In this document: one piece after another, positions 2,580-35,158 of the stretch
How positions within the stretch are numbered: position 1 is the stretch's first letter
How the letters are laid out: each line of letters begins with the position of its first letter
Origin: a virus
Reading direction: 5' to 3' (one strand)
IMG/VR virus record: IMGVR_UViG_3300046832_000578
DNA length: 64,000 nucleotides
Notes under the pieces: model-generated
What the model saw: the letters and a program-made list of their open reading frames with translations, nothing else
Databases searched by the model: none
What the model was told of the DNA's origin: nothing
Translations under genes and position numbers: made by a program

Positions 2580-4060
2580 TGGTAACTATTGAGAAGTTAG
2601 ATGAAGTCTACATGCGTGTGTTTTCTGATGCTAGTATTGAACAGGAACTAACAGACTTCTTTACCTATGAATATCCAGGTGCAAGATTTACACCACAATA
2701 TCGTGCCAGACTATGGGATGGTAAAGTTCGTTTATATGACCAAGTAAGAAAAACTCTTTACATTGGTTTGATTGAATATGTTCAGCAGTTCTGCGAACGA
2801 AATGATTATTCAATTACATACAAAACAGATATCTCTACATCCAATGGTATAACGCACGAACAGATTGAAGATTATGCCAAATCATTACAGCCGATGGGTC
2901 ATGGCAAACCTATTGAGATTCGTGACTATCAAGTCGAAGCAGTAAAGACTGCACTTGATAGAGAGCGAACACTTCTACTATCTCCAACTGCATCAGGTAA
3001 ATCATTTATCATTTATACAACGATGCGTTGGCATTTAGAAAATAATCGTAAATGTATCATTATAGTTCCAACAACATCTCTGGTTGAACAGTTGTATACG
3101 GACTTTGAAGATTATTCTTCTGCCAATGGTTGGGAAACAAAACAACATTGCCAAAAATTGTATAGTGGATTCACTAAAGAATTCACTAAAGATGTTTTAA
3201 TTACAACATGGCAATCAGTTTATCTACAACCAAAGTCTTGGTTCAAACAATTCGATGTTATCTTTGGTGATGAAGCACATCAATTCAAAGCAAAGTCTTT
3301 AACGACTGTTATGGAAAAGATGGATTCAATTCGTTATAGAGTTGGAACCACTGGTACTATCGATAACAAGAAAGTTCATCGTTTGGTATTGGAAGGGATC
3401 TTTGGTCCAATCCATAGGGTAACTACTACCAAAGCATTGATGGATTCTAATAAACTCGCAACACTAAATATTATGTGTCTTATTTTGAAATACTCAGAAG
3501 AGATTCGTAAGGAAAGAAAGAACAATACGTATCAAGAGGAAATTGATTGGCTTGTAGGTTGTGAACAAAGAAATAAATTTATTCGTAATCTGGCAATCAA
3601 TTCAACAGGAAACACGCTTGTTCTATTTCAGTATGTTGAAAAACATGGAAAGATTCTCTACGAGTTAATTAAGAATAAAGCACATGATACTAGAAAGGTA
3701 TTTTTTGTATATGGTGGGACAGAAGTCACCGATCGTGAAGCAATTCGTCACATTACAGAAGACGAAAGTGATGCTATTATTATTGCTAGTTTTGGTACAT
3801 TCTCAACTGGGATCAATATACCGTCTATCGAGAATGTCGTTTTCGCATCGCCAAGTAAATCCAAGATTCGTAATCTGCAAAGTATTGGTCGTGGATTAAG
3901 ATTAAAAGATGGTAAAACATCCTGTAATTTATTTGATATAGCGGATGACCTTCATTGGAAGTCTTGGAAAAACCATACTCTAAATCATGCAGCAGAAAGG
4001 TATAAAACCTATGCTGAAGAGGAATTTAAAACTAAAATAGTAGAGGTGGACTTATGTTAG
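2579..4060 (+). CDS. uvsW: SF2 DNA helicase UvsW
   Basis: WDGK.RL, RDYQ, SPTASGKS, DEAH, GTTGT, STGINI, LQSIGRGLR; start moved to ATG 2579. Confidence 0.95.
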   Translation: MVTIEKLDEVYMRVFSDASIEQELTDFFTYEYPGARFTPQYRARLWDGKVRLYDQVRKTLYIGLIEYVQQFCERNDYSITYKTDISTSNGITHEQIEDYAKSLQPMGHGKPIEIRDYQVEAVKTALDRERTLLLSPTASGKSFIIYTTMRWHLENNRKCIIIVPTTSLVEQLYTDFEDYSSANGWETKQHCQKLYSGFTKEFTKDVLITTWQSVYLQPKSWFKQFDVIFGDEAHQFKAKSLTTVMEKMDSIRYRVGTTGTIDNKKVHRLVLEGIFGPIHRVTTTKALMDSNKLATLNIMCLILKYSEEIRKERKNNTYQEEIDWLVGCEQRNKFIRNLAINSTGNTLVLFQYVEKHGKILYELIKNKAHDTRKVFFVYGGTEVTDREAIRHITEDESDAIIIASFGTFSTGINIPSIENVVFASPSKSKIRNLQSIGRGLRLKDGKTSCNLFDIADDLHWKSWKNHTLNHAAERYKTYAEEEFKTKIVEVDLC

Positions 4061-16583: not shown

Positions 16584-16957
16584 CTCCCTTTGACTTTATT
16601 AATGCAATTAACCTAACCAAAAAGAATCTGTTCGAAGATCCACAAGCAGAGAAAGACTATCTCCCCTTTCTTGTGAACAGGGGTTTGTCTTATTTTCCCG
16701 ATACAGTCCTTTATGCCAACGAGATGAATCGTAACTCTGGCATCCCAAAAGACTGGCAATTTTCCTTTTTCCTAAATACTATACCAAAGAAAAAGAGATT
16801 CAGTAAGTGGCATAAAAAAGATGCCGATTCTGATTCCTTGACACTCGTTAAAGAGTACTTTGGTTACTCATCAGAGAAAGCATTAGAAGCATTGAGCATT
16901 CTCTCCGATGAACAGTTGGCTATGATAAAAGAAAAATTATACAAAGGTGGAAAATAA
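16580..16957 (+). CDS. gp62: Clamp loader small subunit gp62
   Basis: PFDF.NAIN, Y.PF.VNR.LSYF.DT..YANEMN, KKRFSKW, EY.GYS..KA. Confidence 0.92.
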   Translation: MTPFDFINAINLTKKNLFEDPQAEKDYLPFLVNRGLSYFPDTVLYANEMNRNSGIPKDWQFSFFLNTIPKKKRFSKWHKKDADSDSLTLVKEYFGYSSEKALEALSILSDEQLAMIKEKLYKGGK

Positions 16958-17376
16958 TGACTGTTGAGATGATTTACTACGACTGGACTCCCGAGTCCAT
17001 GCTTGAAGTGATACTGCCAGAACCAGACAATTTTTTAAAGGTTCGTGAGACACTTACTCGCATCGGCATCGCATCCAGAAAAGAAAACAAACTGTATCAA
17101 TCGTGCCATATCTTGCATAAGCAGGGTAGGTATTTCATCGTGCATTTTAAAGAATTGTTCGCTCTTGATGGTAAAGAATCAAACATCACGAGTGGAGATA
17201 TTGAGAGAAGAAACGCTATTGCTAGTTTATTGCAAGACTGGGATCTTTTAAAGATTCTAAATAATGCATTGGTAGAACAAAAAGCATCACTCTCTCAAAT
17301 TAAGGTGGTCTCTTATAAAGAAAAAGACCAGTGGGAATTAGTTCCAAAATATAACATAGGAAAAAAATCAAAATGA
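16957..17376 (+). CDS. regA: Translational repressor RegA
   Basis: DNFLKVRETLTRIGIAS, LYQSCHILHKQG.YFIVHFKELF.LDG, RRN.IA.LL.DW. Confidence 0.97.
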   Translation: MTVEMIYYDWTPESMLEVILPEPDNFLKVRETLTRIGIASRKENKLYQSCHILHKQGRYFIVHFKELFALDGKESNITSGDIERRNAIASLLQDWDLLKILNNALVEQKASLSQIKVVSYKEKDQWELVPKYNIGKKSK

Positions 17377-17546
17377 TCAAACTTGAATTGACAGTAGATG
17401 AGTGCAATACTATTCTTCGTGTATTAGGTAAGCACCCATTTGAGGAAGTTGTAACAATTATTAACAAGATTAAAGCACAAGGCGAGCCACAAGTGCTAGC
17501 CATGGCAGAAGCAGAAAAATCTGCAGCTGAAGAACCAAAAGCATAA
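17373..17546 (+). CDS. Small hypothetical protein (57 aa, MIKLELTVDECNTILRVLGKHPFEEV...)
   Basis: Manually translated; ATGA overlap with regA stop. Confidence 0.65.
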   Translation: MIKLELTVDECNTILRVLGKHPFEEVVTIINKIKAQGEPQVLAMAEAEKSAAEEPKA

Positions 17547-17650
17547 ATACCATTAGGCATAACTAATGATTTTACTTAGGTTGTTTTTATGTTCTCCGTT
17601 ATAAGTATAAATGTCCTCTATGGACACTAACTTAATTAAGGAGAAAGATT

Positions 17651-17722
17651 ATGTGGACAACACCGACAGCAACAGACATGAGATTCGGATTCGAAGTAAC
17701 AATGTATGTGATGAACAGATAA
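17651..17722 (+). CDS. pqqA: PQQ precursor peptide PqqA (MWTTPTATDMRFGFEVTMYVMNR)
   Basis: Manually translated 23-aa ORF with strong SD (AAGGAGA); MW..P....R.GFEVTMY..NR pattern with the E-x-x-x-Y residues that become PQQ. Confidence 0.92.
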   Translation: MWTTPTATDMRFGFEVTMYVMNR

Positions 17723-17801
17723 GTTTAGAACCTACAAAAGAAGATAAAGAAATAAATATGCAAAAGTTACTTGAAAGTTTAAGTGACTGTGTATAAAAAT
17801 T

Positions 17802-17933
17802 CACCTTAGGACCACTAAGTTACGAATCGTTATAAAGCAGACATGACGCACGATGTCGCTGGAATTGTAACCAGCATCTGATATGCCTTCGGGGTATCAA
17901 TTTTAATTTAACTCGCTTAATAGGAGAAACAAA
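17802..17933 (+). ncRNA. Structured 5' leader of hsp20, ROSE-like RNA thermometer candidate
   Basis: Four successive hairpins, then CTCGCT-TAAT-AGGAG pairing the SD with a bulged G (ROSE U(U/C)GCU signature). Confidence 0.6.
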
Positions 17934-18440
17934 ATGGTAAGACAATTCATCCCCACAATTTTTGGTGAACACTTCAAAGACTTTGATAAGGTGTTCGTAG
18001 GTTTTGACGACCAGTTCTCGAAGATGCAAAGTCTTCATGACGAACTAACCAAAAACATCCCTAACTATCCTCCATTCAATGTTCGTAAGAACGGTAATAC
18101 CTACACGATTGAAATCGCTGTAGCAGGTTTCGCACAAAACGAAATCGACATTACCATCGATGGTGGCAAACTAATCGTTAAGGGTAACTCTGAATCAAAA
18201 GATCCAGAAGATACTGATTACTTGTTCAAAGGTATTGGCATGCGTGCGTTTACTCGTGCATGGGCAATCGGTGACCAGTATGAAGTTAAAGATGCTGAAC
18301 TGTTCAATGGTGTTCTAAAGATTGCTCTTGATCAATTGATTCCAGAAACACAGAAAGCAAAAAAAGTTCCAGTGAAGACTAAAGGGCAAAAAGAATTCTT
18401 ACGAGAGGACGCATATGACAAAGCTGCTGAAACTCTTTAA
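17934..18440 (+). CDS. Small heat-shock protein (Hsp20/IbpA-like)
   Basis: NYPPFNV, IEIAVAGF, YLFKGIG.RAF.R.W, A.L.NGVL.I.L. Confidence 0.95.
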   Translation: MVRQFIPTIFGEHFKDFDKVFVGFDDQFSKMQSLHDELTKNIPNYPPFNVRKNGNTYTIEIAVAGFAQNEIDITIDGGKLIVKGNSESKDPEDTDYLFKGIGMRAFTRAWAIGDQYEVKDAELFNGVLKIALDQLIPETQKAKKVPVKTKGQKEFLREDAYDKAAETL

Positions 18441-24433: not shown

Positions 24434-26919
24434 TGGAATTTTACACAAGCGTCCATCCACTGGGCGATAAGATACTCGTTAGAGGGTACGATAAAGGAAG
24501 AGCATATCAGCGTAAGGTAGATTTCTACCCTACGCTTTTTGTCACTTCTAAGAAGCAATCTAAGTGGAAGACTTTGGATGATACATATGTTGATGAAGTA
24601 AAACCTGGAACGATTAAAGATACAAGAGAGTTTGTCAAACGCTACGAAGATGTAGAAGGTTTTGCTGTGTATGGTAATACCAATTACGCATATCAATATA
24701 TCAGCGACACTTATCAAGACGATGTCAATTGGGACATGGAACAAATCAAAGTATTCACCATTGACATTGAGACTGCCACTGAGAATGGATTCCCAGATAT
24801 CCGTAGTGCCAATGAAGAGATTCTTCTAATCACAATTAAGAATCTACAAACGAAAAACATTATCACCTTTGGCACTAAGCCATATGAAAACAAACGAGAA
24901 GATTGTCAGTATGTTTATTGTCGTGATGAACAACAACTACTAAAAGAGTTTATCATTTGGTGGCAACAGAACTATCCAGATTGTATCACTGGTTGGAATA
25001 CAGACTTCTTTGATGTGCCATATCTTATCAAACGATTGGACAGAGAACTTGGTGATTCATTCTCCAAGAAAGTTAGTCCATGGGGTTACATCAATGAACG
25101 CAAGACATTCATTAAAGGCAACGAAGAACTTCACTATGACATTCTAGGTATTTCTCAACTAGACTATCTCGAACTTTATAAAAAATATACATATACAAAG
25201 CAGGAGTCTTATCGTCTGGATTATATCGCACAAGAAGAACTTGGTGATAAGAAGAAAGAGAATCCAGGAACAGACTTTAAAGATTTCTATACAAACTATT
25301 GGGATAAGTTTGTTGAATATAACATTCACGATGTGGAGTTAGTTGATCAACTCGAAGACAAGATGCGTTTGATTGAACTGCATCTGACTATGGCATACAA
25401 TGCTAAGATTAATCCTGAAGATGTTTACTCACAAGTTCGTATGTGGGATACTATCATCTACAATCACCTGCGTAAGAAAGGTATTGTTATTCCAGCAAAG
25501 ACTTCTTCAGGTAAAGATGCACAGTTCGAAGGTGCTTTCGTTAAAGATCCAATTATCGGTATGCATAAATGGGTAGCATCCTTTGACTTAAACAGTTTGT
25601 ATCCGCACTTGATTATGCAATACAACATTAGTCCTGAGACCCTGACCAGTGAGAAACTCTCTGTCACAGTTGATAAATTGCTTAATCAAGAAGTGGATAC
25701 ATCTTATATTAAACGAAGAGATCTAACTCTGACTGCAAATGGATGGACATATCGTAAAGACATCAAAGGTTTTATGCCTGAGTTGATGGAGCATATGTAT
25801 GTTAATCGCTCCAAGTTTAAAAAACAGATGTTGAAAGTTGAACAAGAATACCAAAACGATAAGACAAAGGTTCATCTATTAAAAGATATTTCTCGTCTAA
25901 ACAATCTGCAGATGGCGATGAAGATTGCTCTTAACTCTGCTTATGGTGCGATGGGTAATCAATACTTCCGTTACTTTGATATTCGTATGGCTGAAGGTAT
26001 TACCACTTCTGGTCAGTTATCCATTCGTTGGATGGCAAACAAACTCAATGCATTCCTCAACAAAACTCTCAAGACAGAGGGTAAAGATTTCGTCATTGCC
26101 ATTGATACAGATTCGATCTATCTAACATTGGAAGATTTGATTGAGAAGGTTTGTGAAGGTAAAACTACTGAACAGAAAATCAAAACAATGGACAAGATCT
26201 GTGAAGAAGTTTTTCAACCATTTATTGATCAAGGATATGATGAACTTGCTGACTATATGAATGCGTATGGTCAGAAGATGCAAATGAAACGAGAAGTACT
26301 GGCTGACAAAGCAATCTGGACTGCCAAGAAACGATATGTTATTAATGTTCATAATTCGGAAGGAGTGCAATTTGCGAAACCTAAAATCAAAGTTATGGGT
26401 TTGGAGATGGTCAAGTCGTCTACACCTGCGGTTATTCGTGACAAACTTAGGGATTCGTTACAAGTTATTCTTGCTGGCGATCAAAAAGACCTACATACAT
26501 ATGTAACAGCATTTAAGAAAGAGTTCGATAAACTTCCAGTGCATGAAGTAGCATTTCCTCGTGGTGTGAATGGTATGAAACAGTATGCTGGTTCTCCGAT
26601 TTATACAAAGGGAACACCAATTCATGTTCGTGGTGCGTTGCTCTACAATCATCACTGTAAGCGTATGGGACTAGATAAAAAGTATCAACCAATTCGTGAT
26701 GGTGATAAGATTAAGTTTGTTTATGTTCGTACACCAAACCCTCTGCAAGAAGATGTGATTGCTTTTAGTCAGCATCTTCCAAAAGAGTTTGGACTGGAAG
26801 CATACATAGATTATGATAAACAATTTGAAAAAGTATTTCTTGATGCTCTACAGATTGTTATTCAACCACTAGGTTGGAAGACTCAAGAAGAAAGTTCATT
26901 GGAGGATTTCTTTGGCTAA
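24433..26919 (+). CDS. gp43: Family B DNA polymerase gp43
   Basis: DIET, GWN...FD, YN..D, SFDLNSLYP, K..LNS.YG, IDTDS, KKRY; uninterrupted. Confidence 0.98.
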   Translation: MEFYTSVHPLGDKILVRGYDKGRAYQRKVDFYPTLFVTSKKQSKWKTLDDTYVDEVKPGTIKDTREFVKRYEDVEGFAVYGNTNYAYQYISDTYQDDVNWDMEQIKVFTIDIETATENGFPDIRSANEEILLITIKNLQTKNIITFGTKPYENKREDCQYVYCRDEQQLLKEFIIWWQQNYPDCITGWNTDFFDVPYLIKRLDRELGDSFSKKVSPWGYINERKTFIKGNEELHYDILGISQLDYLELYKKYTYTKQESYRLDYIAQEELGDKKKENPGTDFKDFYTNYWDKFVEYNIHDVELVDQLEDKMRLIELHLTMAYNAKINPEDVYSQVRMWDTIIYNHLRKKGIVIPAKTSSGKDAQFEGAFVKDPIIGMHKWVASFDLNSLYPHLIMQYNISPETLTSEKLSVTVDKLLNQEVDTSYIKRRDLTLTANGWTYRKDIKGFMPELMEHMYVNRSKFKKQMLKVEQEYQNDKTKVHLLKDISRLNNLQMAMKIALNSAYGAMGNQYFRYFDIRMAEGITTSGQLSIRWMANKLNAFLNKTLKTEGKDFVIAIDTDSIYLTLEDLIEKVCEGKTTEQKIKTMDKICEEVFQPFIDQGYDELADYMNAYGQKMQMKREVLADKAIWTAKKRYVINVHNSEGVQFAKPKIKVMGLEMVKSSTPAVIRDKLRDSLQVILAGDQKDLHTYVTAFKKEFDKLPVHEVAFPRGVNGMKQYAGSPIYTKGTPIHVRGALLYNHHCKRMGLDKKYQPIRDGDKIKFVYVRTPNPLQEDVIAFSQHLPKEFGLEAYIDYDKQFEKVFLDALQIVIQPLGWKTQEESSLEDFFG

Positions 26920-27463
26920 TATCAGAGTAATTAAAAAAGGAATAAATGTATCCAAGATACTGAAACAATTACATCAGTATCCAGAGGATTGGGGTGCTCA
27001 GAAAAACATTGATGGTGTAGGAGATCTTGTAGACGATTGCGGATTCCCTGCAGTTGAAGCAGGTGTTCTACAGTTAGTCATGGGAGTTGTCTCATCTAAA
27101 GATCAGTATGTGGGTGATAGTGAGATGTCTGCATCAACACCTGCATATAGTCATCATACAGAAATTATTTCATTCTTAAAGAGACACTTCAAGAAATTTG
27201 ATAGGTGTGGATTCTTATCATTACCCATTGCTGGTGTCGTTGGTCAACATATTGATATTGGATCTTACTATCAAACACGAGATAGATATCATCTTGCAAT
27301 TCAAGGTGCATATGATTATACAGTTGGAGGAGAGACTGTAAGAGTAGAAGAAGGTGACTTGATTTGGTTTGATAATAAACAATCACATGGAACAAAGAAT
27401 GTTGGAGATGCTGTAAGAATTACATTTGTGTTTGATGTTCCGCATGCCAAGAACAATCCATAA
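26912..27463 (+). CDS. Asp/Asn beta-hydroxylase-like 2OG-Fe(II) oxygenase
   Basis: HID.G.YY..RDRYHL, G...WFDNK..H...N....RI.FVFD. Confidence 0.8.
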   Translation: MANIRVIKKGINVSKILKQLHQYPEDWGAQKNIDGVGDLVDDCGFPAVEAGVLQLVMGVVSSKDQYVGDSEMSASTPAYSHHTEIISFLKRHFKKFDRCGFLSLPIAGVVGQHIDIGSYYQTRDRYHLAIQGAYDYTVGGETVRVEEGDLIWFDNKQSHGTKNVGDAVRITFVFDVPHAKNNP

Positions 27464-30509: not shown

Positions 30510-31823
30510 ATGGTAAAAGTTATTGTAGCAAAACAGAAACATGATATGACTCATATGTTGGGACAGTTCCCTGATGAGTCGCATTATGATCATCTTATCG
30601 AGGAAGATACAGATGTATACATGCCAGAGATTCCAGGACATCCAGAGATGACATTCTCTGAAGAGAGGATTGTTCTGAAGTTTCGTAAGAATTATTTTAC
30701 AAAAGAACAACAAGACCAAGCATACATTGGACTTCGTGAAGCTGCAACTGAGACGCAGAATCGTGGACTTGCAGCTGGACCAAGAGCAGAGAAGTTAGGT
30801 AATCGTGAATGGGTCACTGAGTATGAATATGACATCGTTGATTACTTCAGTAATCCCAAAGCCAATCTATTTGGTGAAGATCCAATTGAAGCAATTCGTC
30901 AGGCACATAAGAACAAGAAGCCATCTCCGTCTAATCGTAATAATGTTTGGGGTATTTCTACTGTAAAGAAAGACAACTTCGTCTTTGAAGACTGGGTTGA
31001 AGCAACAAGAAAACTTTCTGAGAATGAAATGCGTGCAGAAGCAAAACGAGTTGCTGAGAAATATATCTGTGCAACAACCTATGCCAATGGTGTGTTCTCT
31101 GGTATTGCTGGATGGTTCGATCGTTATCCTCGCATTCCTTATGGTCGTGCAACATCTTATACTGCGAATCATCCAGACAAATTTGCTATGGCGTATCCAT
31201 TCCTACAGCAACTTGCACAGGGTTTTAAAGATCTGTTGCCATGGAGATATGGTAATCAGATGGAAGCAGCAAATAAAATGGATCCTCGTTTCTTAGTTCC
31301 AGAAACTCCATTCACTACTGTCACTGTGAATAGATCTTTTAGAACTGCGTGTCACTTTGATGCAGGTGACCTAACTTCTGGTCTATCAAATCTACTGACA
31401 TTATCAAACAATGGTAATTATCGTGGTTGCCATCTTGTTGCACCAGAGTATCGTGTCGCAGTAAATCCCAGACCTGGAGATCTACTTTTGATTAACAATC
31501 ATGAAGTAATGCATGGTAATACTCAGATTGAATTGCTTGATGATGTGGCAGAGAGAATTTCATTGGTTGTGTACTTCCGTGAGAAGATGCTTGAGTTAGG
31601 ATCTAAAGAGTATGAAGATTGTCGTTTTGACTTTGTTGAATCTCGCAGACTTAATAAAGAACATCCAGAACAACGACCATTGTGGAATGGTGTATCACCA
31701 TCAATGTGGGATTCTAAAGAATGGTTTGATTATCTAGAATCAAAACTAGGTACAGAAGTATTGAACAAGTATCATCCACCAAAGACTACAACTGTTAATG
31801 CACTCGAGGAGTTCTTCGGATAA
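30510..31823 (+). CDS. TET/JBP-family 2OG-Fe(II) dioxygenase (5-methylpyrimidine oxidase)
   Basis: FTTVTVN...RTACHFDAGD (HxD), PGDLLL.NNHEVMHGNT (distal His), RISLV.YFRE (2OG-binding Arg), SGIAG.FDR. Confidence 0.85.
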   Translation: MVKVIVAKQKHDMTHMLGQFPDESHYDHLIEEDTDVYMPEIPGHPEMTFSEERIVLKFRKNYFTKEQQDQAYIGLREAATETQNRGLAAGPRAEKLGNREWVTEYEYDIVDYFSNPKANLFGEDPIEAIRQAHKNKKPSPSNRNNVWGISTVKKDNFVFEDWVEATRKLSENEMRAEAKRVAEKYICATTYANGVFSGIAGWFDRYPRIPYGRATSYTANHPDKFAMAYPFLQQLAQGFKDLLPWRYGNQMEAANKMDPRFLVPETPFTTVTVNRSFRTACHFDAGDLTSGLSNLLTLSNNGNYRGCHLVAPEYRVAVNPRPGDLLLINNHEVMHGNTQIELLDDVAERISLVVYFREKMLELGSKEYEDCRFDFVESRRLNKEHPEQRPLWNGVSPSMWDSKEWFDYLESKLGTEVLNKYHPPKTTTVNALEEFFG

Positions 31824-32518
31824 TGTGTGCCGTAATTGGAACAATCATTCAGAATCCTTCAACAAAGGATTTTGAAAATCTACTTCGTGTATTCCATGAG
31901 TCTAAGATTCGTGGAATGCATGCTACAGGAATCTCATATGTTAAGCATGGTAAAATCCATACTGAGAAACACCCAGTGCCAGCTAATAATTTTCCTTTTG
32001 ATTTGCCAGCGTATGTCAATGAAGATGGAAATCTATACCTTATTGGGCACTGCCGTTATAGCACTAGCGATCTTGAGTATAATCAGCCAATTGCTAATGA
32101 TAATCTCTCAGTAGTTCACAATGGTGTTATTACTCAAGAACTACCAGAGAAATGGAAAGAGTTGTATGGTTATGATTGTGAAACTAAAAACGATACAGAA
32201 TTAATCCTACACACAGCAGAAAATTGCATCTCTCCGTTAGTTCGTTGGAAAGATTCTAGTCTTGCAGTTTGCGAGTTGCATGTTGATAGAGTTATTCGTG
32301 CATATCGCAATGGCAAGCGTCCATTATATTTGACAACTTTCAACAATGGATGTATAATTACCTCTACTGAAAATATTCCTGCACGAGCAGGTATTGAAGG
32401 ATTTACAACTGAGTTACCTTTGAACACTTATATAACTTTTGATGATGCATTGGCTATGATGGTTGAAAAAGAAACGATAGCTGACGCAGTGGATTTCCAA
32501 CACTATGAACTTTGTTAA
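31823..32518 (+). CDS. Class II (Ntn) glutamine amidotransferase, stand-alone glutaminase domain
   Basis: N-terminal MCAVIG (Cys nucleophile), RG.HATG, GHCRYST, NQP, HNG, DTE. Confidence 0.88.
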   Translation: MCAVIGTIIQNPSTKDFENLLRVFHESKIRGMHATGISYVKHGKIHTEKHPVPANNFPFDLPAYVNEDGNLYLIGHCRYSTSDLEYNQPIANDNLSVVHNGVITQELPEKWKELYGYDCETKNDTELILHTAENCISPLVRWKDSSLAVCELHVDRVIRAYRNGKRPLYLTTFNNGCIITSTENIPARAGIEGFTTELPLNTYITFDDALAMMVEKETIADAVDFQHYELC

Positions 32519-33146
32519 TTCTACAAGAGTAGAAGAACTAATTAAAAACAGTCCAGCTGGTAAGAACACCAAGTTCTTATCGGCTGCACACTCATTGTGG
32601 TATCGCTTTCATAATTATGACAAAGCACCACCGATGACATATGAAGTAAATGGTGAAGTTGTATCTCTTATCTTTGCCACATTCAATCGTGACAACTACT
32701 CAAATCTATACGAAATCGTTACAATTGAAGGACATGAAGGTAAAGGATATGCATCCAAGTGTTGGGATGCATGGATTGATTATGCAGTCAAAGAAAGAAA
32801 GATGACTCGATTGAAAATGTCCTGCACACCATCATCTGTTACATGGCACTATAAGAATGGTTTGATTTGGTGGGCAGTAGATCCAACAGGTTCACTTCGC
32901 TCTGATCAACCATTATTCCCAACAAGAGTAGAACAGATTGCTTATCGAGATTATGCTATTGTGAATCCACTTCAAGCACTACCACCATACAAAGCAAGAG
33001 AACAATTTCGATTAGAGGGATTAGAATCCTACAAGTGGGGTGAGAAAAAGAAAGCAAAAAGCCAAGCAGCAATTGATGCAGTGGGTAAGGCATGGTTAAG
33101 AGAAGCACTAATGGAACAACCCTCTTTAGAAGAATTTTTAGTATAA
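32505..33146 (+). CDS. GNAT-family acyltransferase
   Basis: Motif A LYEIVT....EGKGYAS, then S..WHYKNG. Confidence 0.7.
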   Translation: MNFVNSTRVEELIKNSPAGKNTKFLSAAHSLWYRFHNYDKAPPMTYEVNGEVVSLIFATFNRDNYSNLYEIVTIEGHEGKGYASKCWDAWIDYAVKERKMTRLKMSCTPSSVTWHYKNGLIWWAVDPTGSLRSDQPLFPTRVEQIAYRDYAIVNPLQALPPYKAREQFRLEGLESYKWGEKKKAKSQAAIDAVGKAWLREALMEQPSLEEFLV

Positions 33147-34165
33147 TGGATTATCGTTTGCAAGAAAATCGTAAGGAAGCATTCATTCGCTGGTATGCTT
33201 GGTCGTTGAAGTATGATGACTGCGATCCTGCTGTATGGGCAACAAACTATCTGAACAATCGTTATGAACATAATGATGAGCAGAAGTTGTGGTTGTGTTG
33301 GTTGTATGGTAATACATACTATCTTCCAACTGCATGGATTCTTATGAACGAGTTTCCAGACTTTGAGTTAGCCACTGTAGATCGTATGACACAATGGAAC
33401 ACTACAAACTATAAACGATTAAGATACCAAACAGATACAAAGTGGAACAAAGGACACCTCCCTACCATGTTCGCTTCTTACCAACAATTTGTGGGAGACA
33501 AAACACAGAGAGAAAGGTTAGAAGAATATTATGGACGCAATGAAGAAGAGAACTTTAATAACCTGTGGACAGGCATTAAGTCTGGGTTGCATAAGTTTGG
33601 TCGTTATTCCACTTGGTTTTATCTTCAGCATCTTAAGCATACTGCTGGTGTCCATATCAATCCTACTTCTCTCATGTTGGATGATTATGATGGCTCTCGC
33701 TCTCATCGTAATGGATTGCTTTATGCCGTTGGACAGGAAGACTTTGTGGATAGAAAACTCACTGGAGGACATTATAGCAACCTTGAAGCACAAGCGTACG
33801 AGATTCTTTGCGAGACGAAAGCGAGATTTCCAGAACTAATTGATCAGATAGATTACTTTACCATGGAAACTTGTTTGTGTTCTTTTAAGAAGATCTTTAG
33901 AGCACATCATGGTCGTTATCTTGGATACTATCTTGATAGACAGGCAGAAGAAATTATGCAGTGTGAGAAGGATGGATGGTATGGTATTGATTGGGATGTT
34001 TTGTGGCAATCACGAGAAGAAACTATCGACTTGAGATTAGACCACAGAAGAGGAATTGATAAAGAAAGATTTTCTAGTTTTATTAATACAGGAAGACTAG
34101 AGAATTTAGAGTGGATGTTTGATGATGAGCAACCTATATTAAATGGATTGGAGATTTTTGCATGA
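33146..34165 (+). CDS. Amino-acid:DNA transferase (aGPT-PPlase2-like, HhH-glycosylase fold)
   Basis: D.DP, WL.WLYG.TY, KFGRYSTWFY.Q.L (HhH-like), ETCLC.FKK, RY.GYY.DR; context with TET and kinase. Confidence 0.75.
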   Translation: MDYRLQENRKEAFIRWYAWSLKYDDCDPAVWATNYLNNRYEHNDEQKLWLCWLYGNTYYLPTAWILMNEFPDFELATVDRMTQWNTTNYKRLRYQTDTKWNKGHLPTMFASYQQFVGDKTQRERLEEYYGRNEEENFNNLWTGIKSGLHKFGRYSTWFYLQHLKHTAGVHINPTSLMLDDYDGSRSHRNGLLYAVGQEDFVDRKLTGGHYSNLEAQAYEILCETKARFPELIDQIDYFTMETCLCSFKKIFRAHHGRYLGYYLDRQAEEIMQCEKDGWYGIDWDVLWQSREETIDLRLDHRRGIDKERFSSFINTGRLENLEWMFDDEQPILNGLEIFA

Positions 34166-34557
34166 GTTTAACAACGACAAGTTCTGTTTCTTTACCAGTA
34201 AGCATTAGTGATATGACCACTGGGAGTATAACTATATCAAACACCAGTGGTAGTTATGGAACCATTGCCATGGGTGTAATAACCGATGACTTACTAGACA
34301 AGTATGAGTTTAATAAACTAACTGTTGATCATAAAGTATCAGCACATGAACTCTTAAAGTTAAAAGATACTGTTCCAACTTATGCAGACGAGATTAAAGA
34401 AAACCTTGCTAAGAATGCATCAAGAGAATTGGTAAAGAAGATTACCTTTACAAAGAAACATGATGTTGACTCTGATGTGCATCACTTTATTGGAAGAGTC
34501 TGGGTATTTACAGAGGAAGAACTAAGAAAACTTATTGAGGAAGTGAAACATGCTTAA
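34162..34557 (+). CDS. Hypothetical protein inside modification operon
   Basis: Ser/Thr-rich N-terminus; overlaps neighbours. Confidence 0.55.
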   Translation: MSLTTTSSVSLPVSISDMTTGSITISNTSGSYGTIAMGVITDDLLDKYEFNKLTVDHKVSAHELLKLKDTVPTYADEIKENLAKNASRELVKKITFTKKHDVDSDVHHFIGRVWVFTEEELRKLIEEVKHA

Positions 34558-35158
34558 AGAAATTGTAGGAACAACTGATCAAATTTCAATTCAGATTATT
34601 CGTGGAGAACCACAGGTGCGTAAACTAATCGCTGTGGGTGGTCAACCTGGAACTGGTAAAACCACTCTATTCCGTAAGTTTATGGAGAAGTATCAATGGG
34701 AGAAAGTCGAACCTAAAAAGATGCTTCCTGCTCTATATTGTAAAGAACTAGACCTATACATTCTAGGTAAGTATGATGATGGAGAAACCTTTGCTGGTAC
34801 AGATCGTCTAAGTATGGCTGTTCAACCAGTGGCACAGGAGTTTGTTAGAGAGACCACCTCCAATATTCTATTCGAGGGAGACCGAATCTTTAATCAGTCC
34901 TTCCTAGAGTTTGCAATGGGACTTCCTAATACAGATCTTCAGGTAATTTACCTTAAAGTTCCAGATGCTATGCTAAAAGAACGCTATGCAGAACGAGGAT
35001 CCGACCAATCTGAGACTTTCCTAAAAGGTCGTGCGACTAAATATAGTAATATATTGTCTAATTTTGAACTGATGCCCTACATTACAGAGTTCGTTAATAC
35101 TAACTTAGAGGAGCAGGGAAAGGTTTTGAGTTTCTTGGAAGGACATTTCAAGAGATAA
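34550..35158 (+). CDS. P-loop kinase (5-hydroxymethylpyrimidine DNA kinase-like)
   Basis: GGQPGTGKTT, LGKY....FAGTDRLS, FEGDR, R..ERGS. Confidence 0.75.
   Translation: MLKEIVGTTDQISIQIIRGEPQVRKLIAVGGQPGTGKTTLFRKFMEKYQWEKVEPKKMLPALYCKELDLYILGKYDDGETFAGTDRLSMAVQPVAQEFVRETTSNILFEGDRIFNQSFLEFAMGLPNTDLQVIYLKVPDAMLKERYAERGSDQSETFLKGRATKYSNILSNFELMPYITEFVNTNLEEQGKVLSFLEGHFKR

Follow-up and report, generated by a model that had tools for sequence, protein, structure and literature searches.

The regA-hsp20 interval and its pqqA reading frame

In this work we characterized a stand-alone pqqA gene in a 64,000-nucleotide stretch of viral DNA (the window; IMG/VR record IMGVR_UViG_3300046832_000578). The gene content of the window is T4-like and includes gp23, UvsY, UvsW, a gp55-like sigma factor, gp46/47 and gp45, together with gp44/62, RegA, ligase, gp43, UvsX and gp41. 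T4-like core genes flank pqqA on both sides and on the same strand, with the clamp-loader genes, regA and a conserved 57-codon ORF upstream, and hsp20 downstream (Table 1). The original prediction, which was made from the sequence without database searches, placed the peptide between regA and hsp20. The RegA and Hsp20 flanks agree with that placement, with the correction that the 57-codon ORF intervenes after regA. This small ORF is 51-100% identical in relatives by tblastn and matches no Pfam family. Searches of the window returned nothing from Rfam and no tRNA genes.

Table 1. Features of the regA-hsp20 interval in window coordinates
Feature	Position	Strand	Basis or remark
regA (RegA)	16957-17376	+	PF01818
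Conserved 57-codon ORF (context only, outside pqqA)	17373-17546	+	tblastn in relatives
pqqA cassette	17547-17796	+	Alignment A1, pqqA-positive vs. pqqA-negative relatives
AT-rich hairpin CATTAG-N6-CTAATG, then ATTTT	17551-17574	+	Conserved in L254, L256, L265 and L263 (A1)
TAAGTATAAAT box, including TATAAAT	17602-17612	+	38 nt 5' of the ATG; conserved with the cassette
Inverted repeat TGTCC-N5-GGACA	17612-17626	+	Presumed 5' leader
Shine-Dalgarno AAGGAGA	17638-17644	+	6 nt upstream of the pqqA ATG
pqqA coding sequence, 23 codons + TAA	17651-17722	+	Sequence reading, ORF listing down to 20 aa, HMM
Structured hsp20 leader	17797-17927	+	RNAalifold, alignment A1
hsp20 (Hsp20)	17934-18440	+	PF00011

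The pqqA reading frame begins with an ATG at 17651, ends with a TAA at 17720-17722 and translates as MWTTPTATDMRFGFEVTMYVMNR (23 aa), shorter than the 60 aa at which ORF listing starts by default. As claimed at the outset, the ORF follows an AAGGAGA Shine-Dalgarno box; both elements (17638-17722) are evident in the sequence and in the ORF listing, and an (A)AGGAG box at the same spacing from the ATG is kept in nearly all aligned viral copies of pqqA. The peptide scored 39 bits (E = 7.5e-10) against the PqqA family PF08042, which has a curated cut-off of 21.1 bits, and 37.9 bits (E = 1.1e-09) against TIGR02107, an equivalog model with a curated cut-off of 20 bits. Scores so well above both cut-offs rule out a chance ORF. 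By the measure of two curated models the ORF is a bona fide PqqA, and the predicted identity of the peptide has withstood the HMM check. Within the peptide, Glu15 and Tyr19 form the E-x3-Y pair (E15-V-T-M-Y19), as cross-linked into PQQ, and an M-W-T-x-P motif (W-x2-P) that is conserved among copies marks a putative N-terminal leader recognised by PqqD. No PHROGs family was found for the window peptide.

A 61-codon ORF (17611-17796) overlaps pqqA, and it could be argued that this ORF, or its last 12 codons, is the real gene and that the PqqA frame is incidental. The longer ORF is open in the window and its nearest relatives, and all five differences between the window and L254/L256 that fall within 17758-17796 are synonymous in its frame. 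However, it contains at least one stop in L263, L265, L270-L273, L276 and L286-L288, in which the PqqA frame is intact, and the PqqA frame matches the two curated HMMs. Because the 61-codon ORF has stops in all but the closest relatives, PqqA is taken to be the selected frame, and we regard the reverse as highly improbable. A 12-codon mini-ORF downstream may exist separately, without overlapping pqqA. This mini-ORF, MQKLLESLSDCV (window 17758-17796), lies just 3' of pqqA and occurs only in the closest relatives of the window; its five out of five synonymous differences to L254/L256 hint that it could be a second tiny gene.

The AT-rich hairpin forms the 5' edge of the cassette. Judged by its sequence it might act as a weak terminator for the regA unit, and it went uncalled in a consensus terminator scan. 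The TAAGTATAAAT box, which has the consensus TAAGTA[AT]A[AT][AG] among relatives, is a candidate promoter of pqqA. We grade it as a candidate only, because no second copy of the box exists in the window, which also shows no enrichment of the late-promoter-like motif TATAAATR. No element specific to pqqA emerged from consensus promoter and terminator scans. The inverted repeat in the presumed 5' leader retains its GTCC/GGAC arms in L254, L256, L265 and L263, with loops that differ.

In most relatives a tight terminator lies directly 3' of pqqA, whereas in the window the gene instead runs into the structured leader of hsp20. This leader contains hairpins at 17840-17857, 17858-17875 and 17880-17898, followed by a U-rich tract. 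RNAalifold on 18 relatives found compensatory changes at 13 of 22 pairs, and the fold z-score is -2.4; Rfam has no match for the element. The leader is present in pqqA-positive and pqqA-negative relatives alike. In the window the leader probably doubles as the 3' end of the pqqA transcript, which may be terminated by the last hairpin (17880-17898) and the U tract. An invariant ACTCGCTTAATAGGAG within the leader could pair over the Shine-Dalgarno box of hsp20, and the element is a candidate for an RNA thermometer or a RegA operator. A TATAAATA-like late-promoter box precedes the last leader hairpin in distant relatives.

The original prediction also held that the window contains no other pqq gene, and this proved correct. 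A tblastn search with PqqB-E queries from a bacterial contig returned chance hits only (E > 1), and Pfam searches of the ~50 largest window ORFs found neither PqqB, PqqC, PqqD or PqqE, nor a methanol dehydrogenase or any other PQQ-dependent dehydrogenase. An association with pqqBCDE is absent at the window pqqA.

Cassette polymorphism and selection among T4-like relatives

Relatives of the window were gathered through RegA, since a choice based on PqqA would have been circular. A RegA identity of 79% or more was found in ~40 usable relatives, of which 15 carry pqqA. Three of these are near-identical IMG/VR contigs from different metagenomes (L248, L249 and L281), in which both the gene and its setting are identical to those of the window, and the other 12 are diverged. 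The slot is the same in all 15 carriers, namely regA, 57-codon ORF, pqqA and hsp20. Some 25 of the roughly 40 close relatives are without pqqA, and the gene was found in none of ~30 more distant ones. Separate N- or C-terminal fragments of pqqA, as would be expected of a gene split by an intron, were sought in the slots of 29 pqqA-negative relatives, and none turned up. Alignment A1 resolves the cassette as a unit of ~190-250 nt (~250 nt in the window) that is cleanly present or absent, with the stop codon of the 57-codon ORF on one side of the insertion and the structured, conserved hsp20 leader on the other. G363, a complete 174-kb relative with direct terminal repeats and a RegA that is 93.5% identical, has 42 nt in the slot vs. 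~300 nt in the window, and pqqA is found nowhere in its genome. The gene is dispensable, as most close relatives, this complete genome included, lack it. Such a clean polymorphism in otherwise syntenic T4-like genomes amounts to a natural experiment on the worth of pqqA.

In many relatives the regA-hsp20 slot holds a different small gene, instead of or besides pqqA, whose product has an Ala/Lys-rich C-terminus (...DAKKAFA...; L256 ~3560-3900, also L251, L261, L275, L277, L282, L285 and L289). Because so many relatives hold another gene at this position, the slot appears to be a hot spot for small cassettes. A remnant of an attP or integration site was considered and rejected for this lytic, T4-like genome; such an origin is conceivable for siphoviruses in which pqqA lies between divergent modules.

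Where pqqA is carried, its protein sequence is constrained. Across the 12 distinct nucleotide sequences in the RegA-ascertained set, pooled pS was 0.67 (near saturation) and pN 0.13, giving a pN/pS of 0.20. The Glu and Tyr are invariant in all 15 copies of this set, including the variants GFEITMY and GFEVTLY, and stops or frameshifts occur neither in these copies nor in the 120 listed IMG/VR copies found by pattern search (see below). Substitution patterns of this kind indicate that pqqA is under purifying selection in a subset of the relatives. The expectation that the gene would be conserved in related phages, with mostly synonymous change, is borne out by the RegA-ascertained set.

A less flattering history for the cassette would be that of a neutral or decaying hitch-hiker, i.e., a host orphan pqqA unit that entered a variable slot by illegitimate recombination, is not usefully expressed and is heading for loss. 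Its patchiness among close relatives, the existence of a complete close relative that is cleanly without it and the other inserts found in the same slot in some relatives are all in keeping with such a course. Neutrality is difficult to reconcile, however, with a pN/pS of 0.20 at saturated synonymous change, with reading frames that are intact in all 15 RegA-ascertained and 120 listed IMG/VR copies, with a Shine-Dalgarno box kept in nearly all aligned copies, or with independent acquisition in at least 25 phage contexts tied to one host family. We consider a mere hitch-hiker unlikely.

pqqA in other phages and in Methylophilaceae

Every cultured Methylophilales/Methylophilaceae phage lineage returned by a tblastn search of GenBank phages carries pqqA, i.e., P19250A, Venkman, MEP301, MEP401/402 (Zobellviridae) and four Melnitz isolates (Kyanoviridae); a podovirus from spring water has it as well. 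In almost every such record, pqqA is either left unannotated or covered by an ORF called on the wrong strand. The Melnitz-1 gene (L001 4001-4066, equal to MZ577095.1 74888-74953) has an opposite-strand 'hypothetical protein' annotated over it, and the GenBank records of the cultured methylophage loci L003, L004, L002 and L006 are likewise without a pqqA annotation. The papers on Venkman, MEP301, Melnitz and MEP401/402 do not mention pqqA, so far as their text is searchable. Like the window, the cultured methylophages carry an intact pqqA of 23-24 codons that is preceded by a Shine-Dalgarno box and is their sole pqq gene, and their peptides are 73-87% identical to that of the window. Unlike the window, they belong to other phage families and carry the gene at other genome positions. 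Melnitz, which by regA is the closest cultured relative, has its pqqA beside a tRNA-Leu and a long way from regA; the pqqA of Venkman and that of MEP301 run antisense to all neighbouring genes, in the manner of a moron. The PqqD, radical SAM and PqqC families were absent from the complete genomes of Melnitz-1, Venkman and MEP402.

IMG/VR and a species-level genome collection were searched with degenerate DNA patterns for the pqqA core. The GFEVTMY pattern was found in at least 120 IMG/VR contigs, which comprise at least 25 flank contexts; all 120 listed contigs contain intact PqqA ORFs, and pqqB-E was absent near pqqA in every one of the 120 listed loci. These flanks suggest separate acquisitions of pqqA in 25 or more phage contexts, every one of them linked to one host family.

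Two 'Acinetobacter phage' hits were discarded as examples of viral pqqA, as they are bacterial DNA with pqqABCDE. The 144-kb record L007 (CAKLQF020000010.1, 'Acinetobacter phage MD-2021a') holds ppk and a full pqqABCDE operon, and looks like bacterial chromosome; the record is probably a mislabelled or over-extended prophage entry. Since such errors do occur, one might ask whether the window pqqA is host DNA from a chimeric assembly or a mis-binned contig rather than a phage gene. That explanation is scarcely credible for a cassette of only ~250 nt with same-strand T4-like core genes on both sides, which recurs unchanged in three contigs of different metagenomes and in diverged form at the same slot in 12 relatives. 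Moreover, cultured, plaque-purified methylophages carry pqqA too.

A viral PqqA has been reported previously from the Methylophilaceae phage population VP_266 of Lake Baikal, and the same auxiliary metabolic role, in support of methanol oxidation, was proposed for it (Coutinho et al., 2020; Microbiome 8:163, PMC7678222). With viral PqqA of Methylophilaceae phages in print since 2020, the novelty implied by the original prediction was overstated. VP_266 resembles the window in encoding a phage PQQ precursor peptide and in being assigned to methylotrophic Methylophilaceae. It is a single metagenomic population that also carries a viral methanol dehydrogenase, whereas in the window a T4-like myovirus carries pqqA by itself, on a regA-hsp20 cassette that some close relatives have and others lack. 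Taken by itself, the window confirms an already known auxiliary gene and adds the cassette polymorphism.

In the genome collection, the core MRFGFEVTMYVMN occurs in at least 120 stretches, nearly all of them from Methylophilaceae, with carriers in Methylotenera, Methylophilus, Ca. Methylopumilus, OM43 and Methylobacillus. Of the 120 listed host loci, just 14 adjoin pqqB-E, and the remainder are orphan units, each with its own ribosome-binding site and most with a terminator-like hairpin after it. A pqqBCDE neighbourhood is not obligatory for PqqA, given that 106 of the 120 listed Methylophilaceae loci are orphans too. Methylophilaceae genomes have been found to contain 3-12 copies of pqqA and a single pqqBCDEFG set (Beck et al., 2014; PMC4109929), and three were counted in the streamlined Ca. 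Methylopumilus genome G002.

The window copy is like the Methylophilaceae orphans in that it encodes the same 23-residue type of peptide and forms a self-contained unit away from pqqBCDE. It is unlike them in its location among phage replication genes and in its peptide, which differs from the host consensus MWTTPAATEMRFGFEVTMYVMNK at T6, D9 and R23. A tight terminator hairpin, found immediately after most host and most viral units, is missing here. The D9 form was found in two of 361 Methylophilaceae genomes. These departures from the consensus, together with the rarity of D9 among hosts, argue against a very recent capture of the window pqqA. The changes at T6, D9 and R23 are conservative, and the peptide is therefore likely to be fully competent as a substrate. 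A betaproteobacterial, possibly methylotrophic host had been put forward, and the Methylophilaceae-specific type of the peptide lends support to that suggestion; on this evidence, the host of the phage is most likely a methanol-using member of the Methylophilaceae.

Proposed role in PQQ supply

PqqD binds PqqA and PqqE cross-links its Glu and Tyr, as is established, among other sources, by work of the Klinman laboratory. Proteases, PqqB and PqqC then finish PQQ, and one PqqA is consumed per cofactor. The window pqqA shows genomic traits expected of a phage auxiliary metabolic gene, namely a T4-like genome on both flanks, a peptide of the Methylophilaceae type and a pN/pS of 0.20. We judge from these sequence data, with good confidence, that it is a functional stand-alone pqqA serving as an auxiliary metabolic gene of a lytic T4-like Methylophilaceae phage. 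In the mechanism that we propose, the phage would transcribe the cassette during infection, host PqqD would bind the phage peptide and host PqqE would cross-link it. Host PqqF/G, PqqB and PqqC would then trim the cross-linked peptide and mature it to PQQ, which would load the periplasmic XoxF/MxaF methanol dehydrogenases. The phage copy would in this way sustain precursor supply once host transcription fails, and with it the provision of methanol-derived energy until lysis. Of all components, the precursor would be the one at greatest risk of running out after host transcription ceases, because one peptide is destroyed per PQQ and because hosts keep 3-12 pqqA copies per single pqqBCDE set. It should be kept in mind that catalysis does not use up the PQQ cofactor; a need for new synthesis within a short latent period is assumed here, and could arise, for example, from leakage of PQQ out of the periplasm.

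The cyanophage gene psbA offers a parallel, being an auxiliary metabolic gene for a fast-turnover component of a host energy pathway. By analogy, a phage with pqqA would carry the consumed component only and leave the rest to host machinery. The two differ in that PqqA is a sacrificial cofactor-precursor peptide, whereas the psbA product is a protein subunit.

The same peptide could conceivably work against the host pathway, as a decoy that ties up PqqD/PqqE, e.g., so as to divert S-adenosylmethionine or to halt PQQ synthesis, or it could be a precursor that phage enzymes turn into a product other than PQQ. The departure of the window peptide from the host consensus at three positions, with D9 being rare in hosts, could be read in this way, as could the radical SAM/SPASM peptide maturase that relatives encode. 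Against a decoy, most viral copies encode the host consensus peptide, which fits a substrate rather than an inhibitor, and E15 and Y19 are invariant. An alternative product fares no better, as pqqA-bearing siphoviruses and podoviruses occur without any radical SAM gene, and the radical SAM/SPASM gene is present in relatives that have no pqqA (G363, G364 and G367). Since the enzyme occurs in these pqqA-negative genomes, and since PqqE is not among the best 25 NCBIfam matches of its protein, we regard the two genes as unlinked and have rejected the connection. We hold a decoy or an alternative product to be quite unlikely. The particular version in which D9, R23 and the dedicated leader make the peptide a tuned PqqD/PqqE competitor, or in which it is the precursor of the radical SAM/SPASM maturase on the way to a non-PQQ product, seems very unlikely; if it were true, carriage or loss of the cassette would mark host switches within the T4-like clade.

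If pqqA is the auxiliary gene that we propose, the supply of precursor peptide is a step of PQQ-dependent methylotrophy that phages seem to find worth securing. In lakes and coastal seas, the methylotrophs concerned (OM43, LD28 and relatives) form the link from algal methanol to CO2. At 69 nt and skipped by gene callers, pqqA also looks like a sensitive host marker for Methylophilaceae phages.

Several other genes deserve brief mention. The radical SAM/SPASM maturase of the relatives is 463 aa long (L333 652-2043 in G363; also in G364 and G367), with weak matches to many RiPP maturases. In the window, a DNA hypermodification set follows the gp41 helicase (30510-35158) and consists of a Tet/JBP dioxygenase, a glutamine amidotransferase, a GNAT protein, an amino acid:DNA transferase (PF18724) and a P-loop nucleotide kinase 3. 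Possible further auxiliary genes are a fatty acid desaturase (PF00487; 54207-54911) and a cupin or Asp-Arg hydroxylase-like protein adjoining the DNA polymerase (26912-27463).
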